From: a virus
Taxonomy: Duplodnaviria > Heunggongvirae > Uroviricota > Caudoviricetes
Reading direction: 5' to 3' (one strand)
DNA: 64,000 nucleotides
Virus record (IMG/VR): IMGVR_UViG_2718218136_000001
This document shows, one piece after another, positions 6,011-41,430 of this stretch. Under the pieces are notes generated by a model. It worked only from the letters and a program-made list of their open reading frames with translations. It had not been told where the DNA came from and made no database searches. How positions within the stretch are numbered: position 1 is the first letter of the stretch; each line of letters starts with the position of its first letter. The position numbers were made by a program, and so were the translations under genes.

Positions 6011-6217
6011 ATGCTTAGCATACGTAGATTAGCCTCTTACCGACCAAAAGGTCAAGGAGAAGCAGGCTATGAAGCAGCAAAAAGCGATGTTAATCGCTCT
6101 GATCGTCATCTGTTTAACCGTCATTGTGACGGCACTGGTAACGAGGAAAGACCTCTGCGAGGTACGAATCCGAACCGGCCAGACGGAGGTCACTGTCTTC
6201 ACAGCCTACGAATCTGA
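6011..6217 (+). CDS. mok-like overlapping reading frame of the hok-like locus
   Basis: 68-aa ORF starting upstream of and overlapping the hok-like ORF in another frame, as in hok/mok/sok loci. Confidence 0.3.
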   Translation: MLSIRRLASYRPKGQGEAGYEAAKSDVNRSDRHLFNRHCDGTGNEERPLRGTNPNRPDGGHCLHSLRI

Positions 6218-6861: not shown

Positions 6862-7443
6862 TTACTGGAACGCCCGAACAATATCGGAGCTGTTATATAT
6901 CGAAGAACCGGTCAACTGGAGGTTGACGGTGTTTTTCAGGAAATGCCCATTGCTGTCCCTGGGCGCATCGAGATCGAAACTTATGTCCTGGATAGCGACA
7001 TCAATGATGTTGATCCGGCGACCAATGTTTAGCGTCACACGCTCCGGGATTCGACCACCAATACTGGCATCTTTAAGTTCCGGGCTAATCATCGCTGACA
7101 ATGCGGCGATAGCTCCTGAAACCTCCGTGAATGGGTCAAACAAAGCGATGAAAGTTACTGGCAGCGTGAAAGTCGGCGGTGTTCCCCCCTCCCAAACCAT
7201 TAAGCTGTTCCAACGGGCCACCGACGTTGTTTCAGTACCAACCTGCGCAAAACCACTGAAAGCACCAGCAACAGACCCCATGGACATACCGGTAAACGGC
7301 GCTTCCCAATTCTGGGCCATGTTCATTGCTGCCCCCTGGCTGATATATCCGGTAACCTGGTACTGAGAGTTCGTTAAAGTAACTTTCAGAAATGGCGATA
7401 CACCGTCAGCCTGGCTGTAAACCCCATAAGGAATAGGTGCCAT
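6862..7443 (-). CDS. putative virion structural protein
   Basis: 193-aa ORF tightly packed in the same block. Confidence 0.4.
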   Translation of the reverse strand: MAPIPYGVYSQADGVSPFLKVTLTNSQYQVTGYISQGAAMNMAQNWEAPFTGMSMGSVAGAFSGFAQVGTETTSVARWNSLMVWEGGTPPTFTLPVTFIALFDPFTEVSGAIAALSAMISPELKDASIGGRIPERVTLNIGRRINIIDVAIQDISFDLDAPRDSNGHFLKNTVNLQLTGSSIYNSSDIVRAFQ

Positions 7444-33182: not shown

Positions 33183-33378
33183 AATAATAAATTAATTAGT
33201 GCATATGTGTTCTTTGATACAGCGCACATTAACATCGGGAGAATAATCGTGTCATCCAAGGCTAATTATGAATCGCTGGCATCGATCATGCCGCGTAATG
33301 AACAGGAAGCAGATGCTGTCGTGGACCCGGTAATCGCTGAAATGAATGCTCGCCTGGAGGCTGAATTTGCAGCTGAGA

Positions 33379-34532: not shown

Positions 34533-35206
34533 TGGCACCCACAATTTATCACCGTATCGACGGTACCAAATACAGGAATGTCTGGGTTGTTGGTGATCTG
34601 CATGGTTGCTACACCAGACTGATGTCCGAACTCCATCGTGTGGATTTTGACCCGGCGCAGGATTTACTGATATCGGTCGGCGACCTTATCGATCGCGGTA
34701 CTGAAAATGTCGAATGTCTGGAACTATTGCAGATGCCCTGGTTCAGGGCAGTGATGGGGAACCATGAGCGGCTGATGATTGATGCGTTAAGTCCAGATGG
34801 CAACGTGAATAACTGGCTAATGAATGGCGGACAATGGTTCTTCATGCTGGACACTGATCAGGAAATATTAGCCTGGGCGCTGGTGGAGCTGGTAAAGCGT
34901 CTGCCCTATATCATTGAGTTGAACACGGGGCAAGAAACTATCGTTATAGCCCATGCCGACTATCCGGATAATGAATACCAATTCGGTAAGGAGGTGCCGC
35001 TTTTCAACGTTGTCTGGGCGCGCGAGCGTATCAGTGATTCGATGGATGATATTGGTGGCGAAATTTCGGGCGCAGATCGTTTTATCTTTGGTCACACTCC
35101 GGTGAAAAGCCCGAAGACATTCTGGAATCAGCAGTATATCGACACTGGTGCCGTATTTTGCGGAAACCTGACATTGATGAAAGTGAAAGGTGATGGTGCA
35201 GCATGA
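34514..35206 (+). CDS. ppp: Ser/Thr protein phosphatase (lambda-PPase family)
   Basis: Metallophosphatase motifs GDLHG, GDLIDRG, GNHE in canonical order. Confidence 0.75.
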
Positions 35207-36204
35207 AGATTGCTTTAGTTTTTCGCTCTGGTGGTGACTATAACGCTTCCGATGTGCAGTGGCTGGTTAATCAACTGCCAAAAGGCTATGAAATTATTTG
35301 CCTGACAGACCTGAAGCGTTTACATGTACCTGGCGTCAAAGTTGTCCCATTGATCAACCAGTGGCAAAAGTGCCGTGGCTGGTGGGCGAAAATCGAGTTG
35401 TTCCGACCGGATATAACCGATGATCTGTTCTATCTGGATTTGGACACGGTTATTGCCGGTGATATACGCCCAATCCTAGAGCATCCACCAACCAGCTTCA
35501 CCATGCTTAGGGATTTTTACCATCCACAATATCGTGGCAGCGGTGCCCTGTGGATACCAAATAGTGTTAAAGCGCATATCTGGAGTTCATTCTGGCAAGA
35601 TCCGGAAGGTTGGATTTCTCGTTGTGTCACTACTGAGTGCTGGGGTGACCAGGGGTTCTTACGAAAGGTTATGGGCGATGATACACCAGCATTTCAGGAT
35701 CTGTATCCAGGATGGTTTGTAAGTTACAAGGCCGATGTTGTGGAACCTGGTTCAAAATATGCGAGCGCGCGTTACTCCAGGGGGAATGGGGCATTACCAA
35801 AAGACTGCCGAATAATCTTTTTCCACGGCAAACCGCGACCTCGCGAAGTGTCAGAGGATTGGCTTCCCCTTATCAGCTCATTTTTTGAGCGAGAATCAGA
35901 ATATTATTGCTCTAATAATTCCGTATTTTTAAAACGTGATGTACACTCATCACGTTTTTTATTAGAGCAATCTACAAGGTGCACTATGTGGCCATTCCGA
36001 CGGAAATATCACTACTGGCTGATCGCCTTTGTTACGCCGACCGGCGGTATCAGGCATGTCATCACCAGGTATCGCAACAAGAGACTCACCTTAGCCAGAA
36101 TTTTACAGGCTGCCATAGGTGAGGGACTGGATACAAATTGCGTAGTCCTTCCTCCTTCATACTTAGGAAAAATGACCGAAGCACAAGCTAATACGGAACT
36201 TTGA
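35203..36204 (+). CDS. hypothetical protein with DxD-like motif; 3' third may be a separate unit
   Basis: 333-aa continuous ORF; [11 protein letters not shown] resembles a glycosyltransferase DxD motif; a C1-operator pair and hairpin lie inside the ORF at 35906-35971. Confidence 0.4.
35906..35971. promoter_or_regulatory. inverted pair of C1 operators flanking a perfect hairpin with T-run
   Basis: attgctctaataattcc (35906-35922, +) and gattgctctaataaaaaa (35955-35971, -) flank aaaacgtgatgtacactcatcacgtttttt. Confidence 0.5.
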
Positions 36205-36205
36205 A

Positions 36206-37468
36206 ATGAGCACTTCAGCACAAAACCAATCAATCGAAAATGTATGTATCCCTGATGTCCTGAATGCCGGTATCCCGGCCATTATCCAGAACATCCGGGC
36301 CGCGCAACGCCGCGTTAGTTGTGATGACCTCACAGCACGTTTTTTTGATAATGCGGTTCAGTCAGCGGAGATGCTTCACGCACAGCTTATTGATGTTTAT
36401 AACGCAGAAGCTGATAGCCATAACTCCCTGGTAGATGCAGCTGAAAATATGCAGTTGGATCTCGGTCTGAAGGGTAAAGAAATTGAAGAGCTTCAGCTGG
36501 AAATTGAACATTTGAAACGCCAGCAACAGGACGCGATCGACGATGCGACGCATGACGCCAACCAGCGTGCTGATAATGCCGAACGTATAAGCATTGAGCT
36601 GGAAACAAAACTCAATGAAATGACCGCGATGGTTGAACTGCGGAACTCACAGATTTCAACGCTAAAATCTCAATATAAAGAGATCATGAAACTTGATCCT
36701 TTTAACCTTGAGAAACGCTATAACAAAGCTAAAAGCGAGCGACAGGAACTGCGTAAGCAGGTCGCCGACCTTAACCAACAGCTCAAAAAAACTATTAAAG
36801 ATGCAAGCGAGGCGCGCGTGGCATTTGCTAATAAAAAAGCAGAGGTTACCGCGCTGGTTAATGAGAATGCCAAATTTGCGACGCTCAAGAAGGAAATGTA
36901 TGGCATTACTGAGCGCCGTTTCCCTGCAAGCAAACTTCATCCGACGTTAGGGCAAATCTCCTTCTTCCCGCGCCTCCTGGCTTATGGGATCTCATCGCCT
37001 AAAGAGTTCAATAACGAGCGTCCTTATATCGTTTCTAAGCTGGACTTTGCTTATCAGTTCTGCTGCGACATGGGCTATGCCATTGATATCCGAATCAACG
37101 AATGGTTGATGCCAAACTTCCAGCCGTTGGCAATTTTCCGCGAGTTCCAGCCGGAAGGTTGGGTAGAGTTCTTCCATGAATTGATCTGTAAAGAGATGGA
37201 AAGCCGCCGCCCGGAATTGGTCCGTCGAGTTGAGTGGGCGCAAGAGGTTATGTTGGCAGATGCAGAGCTGCCGTTCGAACCGGAATTCATTGATGATCTG
37301 GCAACTAAAGGGTTGCATACCCTGTTTGATGTGGTTACCCGCCGTCATGAGCAGTTGGTTGTCGAATTGGGTTTAGAGGAAACTGCGGCAAGAAGACTTC
37401 TCGATGTTTGCTATGCACGTAGCGATGCATGGGAAAAAGAGAACGGCGGCACTATTTACGTTCGCTGA
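36206..37468 (+). CDS. coiled-coil protein
   Basis: 420 aa; residues about 90-240 are heptad-rich (EELQLEIEHLKRQQQ..., ELRKQVADLNQQLKK). Confidence 0.5.
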   Translation: MSTSAQNQSIENVCIPDVLNAGIPAIIQNIRAAQRRVSCDDLTARFFDNAVQSAEMLHAQLIDVYNAEADSHNSLVDAAENMQLDLGLKGKEIEELQLEIEHLKRQQQDAIDDATHDANQRADNAERISIELETKLNEMTAMVELRNSQISTLKSQYKEIMKLDPFNLEKRYNKAKSERQELRKQVADLNQQLKKTIKDASEARVAFANKKAEVTALVNENAKFATLKKEMYGITERRFPASKLHPTLGQISFFPRLLAYGISSPKEFNNERPYIVSKLDFAYQFCCDMGYAIDIRINEWLMPNFQPLAIFREFQPEGWVEFFHELICKEMESRRPELVRRVEWAQEVMLADAELPFEPEFIDDLATKGLHTLFDVVTRRHEQLVVELGLEETAARRLLDVCYARSDAWEKENGGTIYVR

Positions 37469-37540
37469 TAGTTACAGTGTCACTTTTAATGCTGGTGGAG
37501 TGCTCCCACCAGCATTTTTTTCGTCCAATGAGGAGGGCAT

Positions 37541-38047
37541 TTGAGTATTTTCAATAAACACGCACACCAGGAACGTCCGTACATCGTCATAGTAGATATT
37601 GATGGGACGATATCAGAGGCAACGGAAGACAGGCTGCATTTACTTCCACCACCTGGCAAAGGTGCATTAACAGAGCACTGGAACGAGTTTAACCTTGCCT
37701 GTGACACTGATGCTCCCATCACTCCAGTTATTGATATGGTGCGCCAGTTATTTAACGTTTACACGGTCTGGTTTGTAACCGGGCGCTGTGAGATCGCAAG
37801 GGATAAAACACGAGCCTGGCTGCGGAAGTACGTAACAAACGGTGCTGAGCCTTTGCTATCTATGCGTCCTGCCACCGATGACAGAAATGACGGCCCAGCA
37901 AAGATTGATCTCCTTAAGAAAATTGGTCTAAGTAAAATCGCGTTCGCACTGGAAGATAAGATTGAAGTGGCGCGTGTTTTCAGGAGTCACGGCGTACTTA
38001 CGTTAATGGTCAGGGAGTATGAAAACGCACTTCTTCATCAACAATAA
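37541..38047 (+). CDS. HAD-like phosphatase (DxDGT motif)
   Basis: N-terminal IVIVDIDGTISE is HAD motif I; size fits small nucleotidases or Pnk-phosphatase-like proteins. Confidence 0.45.
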   Translation: MSIFNKHAHQERPYIVIVDIDGTISEATEDRLHLLPPPGKGALTEHWNEFNLACDTDAPITPVIDMVRQLFNVYTVWFVTGRCEIARDKTRAWLRKYVTNGAEPLLSMRPATDDRNDGPAKIDLLKKIGLSKIAFALEDKIEVARVFRSHGVLTLMVREYENALLHQQ

Positions 38048-38062
38048 TTGCTCTAATAAATC
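38046..38062 (+). promoter_or_regulatory. C1 operator
   Basis: attgctctaataaatct overlapping the stop codon of the HAD-like gene. Confidence 0.55.
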
Positions 38063-38313: not shown

Positions 38314-41300
38314 CTATATTTTTCCGCCTACGCCTTTAAACTTCTCAATAAACGAGACGATTTTCTGGAAAACTGCCTGTTTTTTCGTTTTATATTGCGG
38401 ATTTAACGGACTAAGTTTTGGTAATGTTTCGTTTAATTCTGTGCCATTTTCGGTGGCATATTCGCGTTTTAAAGACGTGCGAATATAGCGTTTTGCTGCA
38501 TCTTCATTGAGATTTTCTTCTTTTATCAATGCTTCTGCTTCACGTTGCTGTTCGCGTTGAGCAAACGTAAAGAATGCGTCAATGATGCTGGCTTTGTCCG
38601 GTAAATCATCCAGGTTCGTTTGCTGAATAAAATCGACCACCAGGCCCTCTTTAGCACGGTTCCCTAGGCTTGAACGAATTAAGCGTTTGACCTCTTCGAT
38701 CATTTCGCCCTTGCCTTTATTTTGTCTGTTGTGTTCGAAAATCAGTCCAAGGATATAATCCAGGTTTATTTCCTGAGACTTCAGCAAATCGACCTCAAAA
38801 ACTACGTCATCCCAGTCAGTGGTTGATTTCTCTTTTTTCTCAGCTTCTTTCTCACGGCGCTGCCAGTCGCGAATATCGTTATAGGCAGAACGATAATCCT
38901 GAATCTTGCGATCAGCAGGGAGACGAATTGTTTGCAATTTAGCGAACTTTTCATCATCCACATAATGCTCTGCTTTGAATTTTTCTACCGCAACAGGATC
39001 GCTAAGATCGATTTGTTGCAGGGCTTTTAGCGTGGCAAATTCATCATAGTTTTGCAGGATGTTCTCGGCACGCAGGTATTCGCCAAACAGTTTAACGAAG
39101 TCTTTCTTCTCTTTTTCACTTTCAATACTGGTAGGGTCAGGGAACCGTTGTTCCAGTTCTGAAACTACTGTCATAAAGCCGCGTTTAGCTTCACCAGTAG
39201 CAGCATCAGTAAAGCCTTCCATATACTCTGTATAACTCTTTTCTAACACCACATTTTTGGTGTTTTTGTCACCAAACAGCGTTATGGCATCAATAGTTGA
39301 GCGTTCCAGATCCCGGAAAGTGACGATATTACCGAAGGTTTTAGTAGCGTCATAAATGCGGTTGGTGCGGGAAAATGCCTGCATCAGGCCGTGAAAACGC
39401 AAGTTTTTATCGACGAATAGCGTGTTCAATGTTGGAGCATCGAAGCCGGTTAAAAACATCCCCACGACGATTAACAAGTCAACATCCTGATTTTTAACCC
39501 GCTGAGCCAGGTCCCGATAGTAGTTCTGAAAACCCTTGCTATCAGTACTGAAATTCATTTGAAAATGGTCGTTATATTCACGAATTGCAGCATCCAGAAA
39601 CTCTTTAGCACTGCTGTCCATTGCGCTGGTATCAAAAGTTTCATCGGAAATTTCACCAATGGCATTTTGTTCTTCATTAGCGGCAAAGGAGAAGATTGTC
39701 GCAACACGCAGCGGTTTATAGGTAGCCGATTTATTAGCGGCTTCTTCTTGTAACCGTTTAAACGTCGCATAATAGGCTTTCGCGGCATCCACGCTGCTCA
39801 CTGCCAGCATGGCATTAAAGCCTTTGGAGCCTGGGAAGGTACGGTGGGTTTTCTGGCGGAAGTTGTTCAGGATATATTGCGTGATTTCCTGAATACGCAT
39901 GGGATGAAGAAACGCCTGCTGATTTTCAGCCGCACTCAGTTTTTTCTCGTCAGTTTCTGTCTCTAAAGACTTAAACTGTGGCCGCACATCGTTGTAGTCC
40001 ACCTTGAATTTGAGCACTTTTTCGTCACGAATCGCATCGGTAATTACATACGAATGCAATTCACGACCAAATACGCTGGCGGTTGTTTCTGAGCCTAAGG
40101 CGTTTTCCGGGAAAATAGGGGTGCCGGTAAAACCAAACTGATAATAGCGTTTGAATTTCTTCTTCAGGTTTTTCTGCGCTTCTCCAAACTGGCTGCGGTG
40201 GCATTCATCAAATATAAACACCACTTGCTGATTATATACAGGCAGGTCGCTTTCTGCTTTCATCAGATTATTGAGTTTCTGAATAGTAGTGACGATAATT
40301 TTGTTATCGTCCTTATCCAGATTTCGTTTAAGGCCTGCGGTATTTTCCGAGCCGTTGACGCTGTCTGGCGAAAAACGCTGATATTCCTTCATGGTCTGGT
40401 AATCGAGGTCTTTCCTGTCGACCACAAAGAAGACTTTATCAATAAAGTCCAGCTCTGTTGCCAGACGCGCGGCTTTAAAGCTGGTGAGGGTTTTACCAGA
40501 ACCGGTAGTGTGCCAGATATACCCACCGCTTTCCGGTTTTGACCAGTTCTTCGCTGTAAAGGAACTCTTAATTTTCCACAGAATGCGCTCGGTGGCGGCA
40601 ATCTGGTACGGTCGCATCACCAGTAGCGTCTGACTACTGTCAAAAACGCTGTAGTTCACCAGAACATTCAGCAGAGTATGTTTCTGGAAAAAGGTAGCGG
40701 TAAAGTCTTTGAGGTCTTTAATCAGCGTGTTGTCTGATTTCGCCCAATTCATGGTGAAGTCAAAACTGTTTTTATCGCGCTTTGTCGTGTTGGCAAAATA
40801 ACGGGTATCGGTGCCGTTAGAAATGACAAACAGTTGCAGATACTTAAACAGGGAATTTTCGCTGTTAAAACTCTCTTTACTGTAACGATGTATCTGGTTG
40901 AAAGCCTCACGAATCGCCACCCCGCGTTTTTTTAGTTCGATTTGCACCAGCGGTAAACCATTAACCAGGATCGTGACGTCATAACGGTTAGCATGAGAAC
41001 CCGTCTGTTCAAACTGCTGGATAATCTGCACCTTATTGCGCATGAGATTCTTTTTATCTATCAAATAGATGTTCTCAAGTCGCTCGTCATCAAAAATAAA
41101 GTCGCAAATATAGTCGATATGGATTTTACGGGTCTTATCCAGAATGCCATCGCTCGGGTTGTCCAGATACTGCTCCGTGAAACGCCGCCACTCGCTGTCA
41201 TTAAACACCACACCATTGAGGCTCTGAAGCTGTTGTCGAACATTGGCCAGCATCGCCGACTGAGATTTTACGGATATAAATTCATAGCCCTGATTTCGCA

Positions 41301-41430
41301 GGTCCTGAATCAGTTCACGTTCCAGGTCCGATTCGCTCTGGTAGCTGTCGCCTGTTGGCTCAGCTTTGATGTACTTATCAAGAACGATAAAGTTATTGGA
41401 TTCAGCAATGGTGTGTGTCTGATGAGTCAT
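38314..41430 (-). CDS. hsdR: type I restriction enzyme R subunit (EcoR124-like, family IC)
   Basis: 1038 aa; SF2 motifs GSGKT ([11 protein letters not shown]) and DEAH-type [10 protein letters not shown]; same length as EcoR124I HsdR as recalled. Confidence 0.85.

Follow-up and report, generated by a model that had tools for sequence, protein, structure and literature searches.

A rare single-base stop-loss allele joins the pmgQ and pmgR reading frames across a P1-type C1 operator module

The closest described counterparts of the locus analysed here are found in P1 and P7. In the P1 record (AF234172), pmgQ (702 nt, 233 aa) is followed, after a single base, by operator a, the predicted promoter PpmgR and the inverted operator OpmgRb, and then by pmgR and pmgS; the P7 record (AF503408) names these elements hdmD, Op(sht[a]), Op(sht[b]), shtA and shtB. 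The operator module, 66 bp long, sits in both records within an 81-nt spacer that runs from pmgQ/hdmD (233 aa) to pmgR/shtA (72 aa) and, since P1 and P7 both annotate it, the operator pair is a known and named element. Upstream, the P1 annotation describes a tightly packed unit, pmgN-pmgO-pmgP-ppp-pmgQ, under the control of PpmgN/Op83, with the late promoter LPpmgL further upstream. The C1 consensus is an asymmetric 17-bp sequence, ATTGCTCTAATAAATTT (PMC8546580), while previous work has described pmgQ as dispensable (PMC10695390) and pmgR as essential (PMC9024508). The assignment of the operators to the control of pmgR and pmgS comes solely from GenBank annotation: a text search of the literature for 'Op86', the former name of the pair, returned no match, and what is said here about Op86 is taken from the feature notes of the P1 and P7 records.

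The window (the whole stretch of 64,000 nucleotides that was analysed, IMG/VR virus record IMGVR_UViG_2718218136_000001) is, judging from its sequence, a P1/P7-type phage-plasmid, and comparison of the segment from 35000 to 36400 gave 99.1–99.7% identity to P1, P7 and SJ46. P1 and P7 carry annotated operators at exactly the positions where a sequence-only reading of the window had placed two inverted C1 operators, with pmgQ and pmgR as separate genes. Each of the two sites (operator a, ATTGCTCTAATAATTCC; operator b, ATTGCTCTAATAAAAAA) matches the 17-mer consensus at 14 of 17 positions, the first 13 of them perfectly, and their centres lie 49 bp apart in a module of 66 bp. By consensus match and positional orthology, both sites are P1 C1 operators. 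Alignment of the region to P1/P7 revealed two differing bases in 141, an A-to-T change at 35904 and an A-to-G change at 35923, and only the latter falls within the 66-bp module. The element is the same as OpmgRa/OpmgRb with PpmgR of P1 (Op(sht[a])/Op(sht[b]) of P7) in position, orientation and sequence, except for 35923. However, the module is intergenic in P1 and P7, whereas in the window the pmgQ frame reads through it, the differing base at 35904 lying just upstream. The G at 35923 is located one base beyond operator a, within the PpmgR spacer, and is shared, among the fetched loci, by L115 and L021 only. The features of the segment are collected in Table 1.

Table 1. Features of the pmgQ-pmgR-pmgS segment (window positions) and stem versions found in related loci.
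Feature	Position	Strand	Basis or detail
pmgQ/hdmD part of the fused ORF	35203..35904	+	233 codons plus the mutated stop; aligns with the 702-nt CDS of P1 and P7
Former pmgQ stop	35902..35904	+	TAA in P1 and P7; TAT (Tyr) here, A to T at 35904
C1 operator OpmgRa (former Op86a), Op(sht[a]) of P7	35906..35922	+	protein_bind features of AF234172 and AF503408
Predicted sigma-70 promoter PpmgR	35907..35935	+	-35 TTGCTC 35907-35912, 17-nt spacer, -10 TAAAAC 35930-35935; P1 GenBank
RNA hairpin, 11-bp stem and 6-nt loop, then T6 (35955-35960)	35931..35958	+	folding, covariation
Stem arms 5'/3', window and P1			AAAACGUGAUG / CAUCACGUUUU
Stem arms 5'/3', L116 and L124			AAAACAUGGUG / CACCAUGUUUU
Stem arms 5'/3', L122 and L123			AAAGCAUGGUG / CGCCAUGUUUU
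Stem arms 5'/3', L117			AAGGUGUGGUG / CGCCACAUCUU
Stem arms 5'/3', L125			GCGGCAUGGUG / CAUCAUGCCGU, 3-nt loop UAU, then U6
C1 operator OpmgRb (former Op86b), Op(sht[b]) of P7	35955..35971	-	protein_bind features; overlaps the T-run
Shine-Dalgarno-like AAGGTG of pmgR	35975..35980	+	read from the sequence; 5 nt, then ATG at 35986
pmgR/shtA (72 aa), also the C-terminal part of the fused ORF	35986..36204	+	P1 and P7 annotation
pmgS/shtB (420 aa, coiled-coil), follows pmgR in the C1-controlled unit	36206..37468	+	P1 and P7 annotation
Terminator-like hairpin and T-run closing the pmgR-pmgS unit	37488..37516	+	11 pairs, 6 G-C, -17.6 kcal/mol; consensus scan

Over the window as a whole, the C1 16-mer was matched 18 times with three mismatches or fewer, against 1.06 matches expected. 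Overlapping operator matches are found at 22411–22438, where a perfect 16-mer (22411–22426, plus strand) is combined with a two-mismatch site (22423–22438, minus strand), and by their sequence this pair looks like one of the bivalent operators of P1. Elsewhere, the minus strand at 38314–41430 encodes a 1038-aa type I restriction enzyme R subunit just after pap and an Op88-like operator (38047–38062); the identical gene of L115 matches the Pfam families HSDR_N, ResIII and EcoR124_C. At the pap/Op88 junction the P1 record has only short fragments resembling DNA that flanks the EcoDXXI and R124/3 hsd loci, and the window lineage seems, from an examination of hsdR, to carry an hsd gene where P1 has remnants.

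Positions 35203–36204 form an unbroken ORF of 333 codons with the operators at codons 235–257, as had been read from the DNA. The module looks intragenic here because a single base change has removed the stop codon of pmgQ: in P1, P7, SJ46, Ro157c2YLVW and JL22 the annotated pmgQ/hdmD is 702 nt long, with a single base between its end and operator a, and in the window its TAA has become TAT. Since the 81-nt spacer is in frame with the pmgR start and contains no in-frame stop, loss of the pmgQ stop is enough to join the two frames, adding 28 residues before the PmgR methionine (the tyrosine that replaces the stop and 27 further codons). The earlier suggestion that two genes had been fused by loss of a stop is thus borne out, and by sequence the 333-codon ORF is a gene fusion of this kind. 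It resembles other fusions arising from a point stop loss in that it involves one substitution in a TAA, a stop-free spacer in frame and a second gene that continues this frame; unlike in ordinary cases, the linker is a regulatory region with two operators, a promoter and a hairpin, and pmgR keeps its own start. A search of Pfam with the 333-aa product gave no match; the RefSeq name given to PmgQ is 'glycosyltransferase'. The exact 72-aa PmgR protein occurs on at least 1000 contigs. A 72-aa pmgR homolog in vB_EcoM-Ro157c2YLVW (MH160767.1; 2487–2705 of L004) is labelled gene 'L' with the product name 'RNA-directed RNA polymerase L', apparently an annotation error in the database.

The open spacer frame invites the idea that it is itself under selection. 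We estimated the chance of an open, in-frame spacer at about 0.05 (about 0.15 for the lack of a stop multiplied by 1/3 for the frame), which makes the open frame seen in the P1 group no more than mildly improbable as a chance event. Moreover, frame, length and stops vary among lineages; because the open frame is not conserved across them, we take it as a coincidence and reject selection on it.

How rare the stop loss is was addressed with an exact-pattern scan in which the stop codon was left free, yielding 114 related loci. The stop is TAA in 113 of these and TTA in one (L078), and TAT is found in none. In L078 (IMGVR_UViG_2778261417_000008, 6186–6208) the change from TAA to TTA (Leu) also creates a 333-codon pmgQ-pmgR ORF; its spacer haplotype differs from that of the window, which indicates an independent stop-loss event. 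A stretch identical to 35825–35922 was absent from 600 plasmid and 608 E. coli complete-genome records, where the best match covered 97 of the 98 bases, and an exact-variant scan of JGI metagenome contigs did not find the TAT variant. The exact 333-aa protein was found in Logan assemblies only (two contigs in the cluster table, three in the contig look-up), in a 90%-identity cluster of 2,479 members; the 233-aa form of P1 is by itself present on 332 contigs. One Logan contig, L115 (run ERR15823409), is identical to the window at 7,001 of 7,002 bases, has the TAT codon and differs at 33320. Thus at least one further assembly has the TAT variant, yet it is limited to a very small lineage. As many as 108 of 111 relatives are one mutation away from the fusion. 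Nevertheless, the frequency of stop loss (one locus in 114 plus the window lineage) is about the per-site singleton rate in the spacer, and we therefore rejected the rarity of the fusion as proof of selection against it.

Homologs of the fused product end where pmgQ normally ends. A search with the 333-aa sequence returned 35 clusters, reaching down to 29% identity, all of which are 189–243 aa long and cover 64–70% of the query, namely its first part; this settles, in favour of two genes, a check proposed with the sequence-only reading, which asked whether homologs end near residue 235. Likewise, 11 divergent loci carry pmgQ followed by a small pmgR-like gene and the fusion is present in none of them. 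The pmgR-like gene was called at 72–79 aa in most of these loci (L119 has no pmgR call and a visible PmgR-like frame, and the call in L120 is 56 aa long), and a pmgS-like gene of about 416–429 aa usually lies downstream. Where the C1 module is present the divergent spacers measure 77–83 nt, the two genes are related by frame 0, 1 or 2, and several of the spacers contain in-frame stops. Two distant relatives, L118 (3274–3321) and L120 (3266–3313), whose PmgQ proteins are 55–58% identical, lack C1-type operators ahead of pmgR. At this point there is instead another 12-nt inverted repeat (AAGATACTAAAT / ATTTAGTATCTT, with copies 36 nt apart from start to start) that occurs at a single spot in each 5.7-kb locus and, from its arrangement, may be the operator of another repressor. 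If so, repressor control of pmgR would predate the operator sequence.

Between the two operators lies a hairpin. Its arms (35931–35941 and 35948–35958) form 11 perfect pairs around the loop TACACT, so that what had been described as a perfect palindrome with a T-run holds for the pairing and for the six T's, although it is strictly an inverted repeat with a spacer. The 90-nt region around it folds at -26.9 kcal/mol (z = -6.3), none of 200 shuffles folding as well, and its opposite strand folds about equally well. The hairpin alone accounts for -12.9 kcal/mol, or -13.4 kcal/mol in a 39-nt context; the core stem is modest (7 bp, 4 of them G-C, -8.5 kcal/mol) and the base of the stem is A/U-rich. 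The operator-hairpin-operator module measures exactly 66 nt in all lineages that possess it, and the five versions of the stem (Table 1) all fold on the plus strand at -13.4 to -16.5 kcal/mol. In L125 (ENA ERZ27235605 k119_98014, 767–832) the base of the stem reads GCGGC...GCCGU and the loop has 3 nt, giving the appearance of a textbook terminator.

Comparison of the stem versions revealed that pairing is maintained while the sequence changes. In an in-register alignment of the core, which replaced a MAFFT alignment that had the 3' arm of L117 out of register, 97% of the cells are paired and 4 of the 11 pairs have changed on both sides (7 cells), a covariation signal that comes from about four diverged lineages related to one another (L125, with a loop 3 nt shorter, was excluded from the pair count and folded separately). 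None of 500 shuffles attained the observed pairing or covariation score, and controls with slid arms were 39–72% paired. Close relatives display the same pattern, with pairing-preserving transitions that recur (in four, two and two loci) and five stem-breaking changes that are all singletons. In L122/L123, L117 and L125, the minus strand folds 5.5–8.6 kcal/mol more weakly owing to G.U pairs, an asymmetry that double-stranded DNA cannot sense and that points to RNA made from the plus strand. The hairpin thus appears, from comparative sequence data, to be a conserved plus-strand RNA structure.

The T-run is retained everywhere except in L117, and the hairpin starts 27 nt past the ancestral pmgQ stop, where the packed pmgN-pmgQ unit ends. 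For a conserved plus-strand hairpin and U-run in such a place, the simplest role is intrinsic termination of that unit, and we consider this its most likely role, with the terminator nested in the promoter of pmgR. The stem-loop and U-run 27 nt after a stop codon and the compensatory changes are as in intrinsic terminators that overlap the promoter of the next unit; unlike typical examples, the U-run in the window coincides with a repressor operator, the base of the stem is A/U-rich and the hairpin lies inside a translated frame. The P1 record has no feature on the hairpin and no terminator anywhere in a 16-kb span. Our consensus terminator scan did not list it either, probably because maximal extension of the stem consumes four of the six T's, and Rfam returned no family at E<=1. 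The searchable literature yielded no data on P1 transcript ends or starts at the module.

The promoter assignment deserves experimental checking, because the predicted -10 (TAAAAC) is weak and poorly conserved: it does not have the conserved final T, it reads TAAAGC, TAAAGG or TGCGGC in relatives, and a consensus promoter scan did not find PpmgR. The TGCGGC version, which occupies the predicted -10 position in L125, casts doubt on the assignment made in P1. A leftward promoter-like match (35932–35903) was set aside as a chance occurrence, as three such matches were found against 5.1 expected.

Taken together, we regard it as highly probable that the 66-bp module is a P1-type pmgQ-pmgR regulatory region in which the pmgQ stop has been lost, with the hairpin as a proposed terminator nested in PpmgR. 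According to this model, the two monovalent inverted C1 operators around PpmgR would control the pmgR-pmgS unit, while the hairpin would end the upstream pmgN-ppp-pmgQ unit as an intrinsic terminator. Given that the predicted -10 overlaps the 5' arm, PpmgR transcripts should start inside the hairpin; with a start at about 35942, in the loop, they would have no 5' arm and would escape termination. C1 bound at operator a would cover the -35 and at operator b would sit just past the start, so that both would repress initiation in lysogens. The strong hairpin 20 nt past pmgS, which also carries no annotation in the P1 record, could act as a second terminator and close the pmgR-pmgS unit. As pmgR keeps the sequence AAGGTG followed by 5 nt and ATG (in a part of the spacer that varies among relatives), PpmgR transcripts should still yield free PmgR. 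The only source of the predicted fusion, PmgQ joined to PmgR by the 28-residue linker, would be upstream transcripts reading past the hairpin. Ribosomes that cross a hairpin can lower termination, as in classical attenuation, and in the stop-loss allele ribosomes translating across this one might weaken termination likewise.

Other readings of the module differ in what they ask of the hairpin. An intragenic terminator or attenuator under repressor control, as initially suggested for the window, does not fit best with a module that is normally intergenic, with operators annotated for PpmgR and with a -10 that lies on the 5' arm. One elaboration of our model is that C1 at operator b additionally serves as a roadblock that aids termination, making of the interleaved terminator and C1-controlled promoter a dual switch. 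We hold this to be unlikely; were it true, C1 would control read-through from pmgQ as well as initiation at PpmgR, and ribosomes in the stop-loss allele, translating across the hairpin, would partly break down this insulation, so that the essential pmgR would become coupled to the upstream unit. Less probable is a leader attenuator, in which pmgR-pmgS transcripts would start before the hairpin and the hairpin would be a regulated terminator whose read-through C1 modulates. A hairpin with a U-run 28 nt before the pmgR ATG and between two operators would suit such a device, and the annotated -10, weak as it is and not conserved in L125, leaves the true start uncertain. However, the sole proposed promoter puts the start inside the hairpin, neither reading nor scanning the sequence offered a better -35/-10 pair upstream, the minimum free energy and centroid structures contain only the hairpin and an outer helix between the inverted operators with no antiterminator, and there is neither a leader peptide nor an Rfam match. 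The constant length of the module, always 66 bp with operator centres 49 bp apart, does suggest a geometric constraint, as would be expected if the palindrome acted as DNA, either by offering a dimeric protein a binding site or by spacing two C1 molecules suitably for looping or cooperative binding. We judge this very improbable, and slightly more so than the attenuator: the stem bases are free to change as long as pairing is kept, unlike in a sequence-specific protein site, the plus strand folds 5.5–8.6 kcal/mol more stably in three lineages by virtue of G.U pairs, and L125 has a loop 3 nt shorter and a shifted 3' arm.

The stop loss, for its part, could be an error of sequencing or assembly, the real phage having TAA. 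The change concerns a single base within an A/T-rich stretch, and TAT did not turn up in three curated collections, in IMG/VR or in the JGI metagenomes. Yet it is a substitution and not a change in homopolymer length, and the identical 333-aa product is called on two to three Logan contigs, including L115, which is not simply the same record since it differs from the window at 33320. We therefore give an error a slim chance, smaller still than that of a DNA-level role for the palindrome. At the far end of the scale, and the least credible of these alternatives, is a PmgQ-PmgR fusion selected as a functional two-domain protein in the window lineage. Two independent stop losses, TAT here and TTA in L078, produced the same 333-codon fusion, as such selection might; but with 108 of 111 relatives one mutation away, only L078 among the 114 loci has it (besides the window and L115), a homolog cluster of fused length is absent at any divergence, the frame of the spacer and its in-frame stops differ among lineages, and the linker is merely translated operator, promoter and hairpin DNA.

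What the window carries is a known regulatory element, Op86a/b with PpmgR, bearing a rare single-base stop-loss allele, and the finding has little importance beyond annotation, as the operators and the promoter are already present in the P1 and P7 reference records. Gene callers would report a spurious-looking 333-aa "PmgQ" in the window lineage; the ORF is best flagged as a pmgQ-pmgR stop-loss fusion, with the essential pmgR still annotated. A modest new point is the evidence that the hairpin between Op86a and Op86b, unannotated in P1, is a conserved plus-strand RNA structure, which makes it a good candidate for a terminator that would separate two C1-controlled units.
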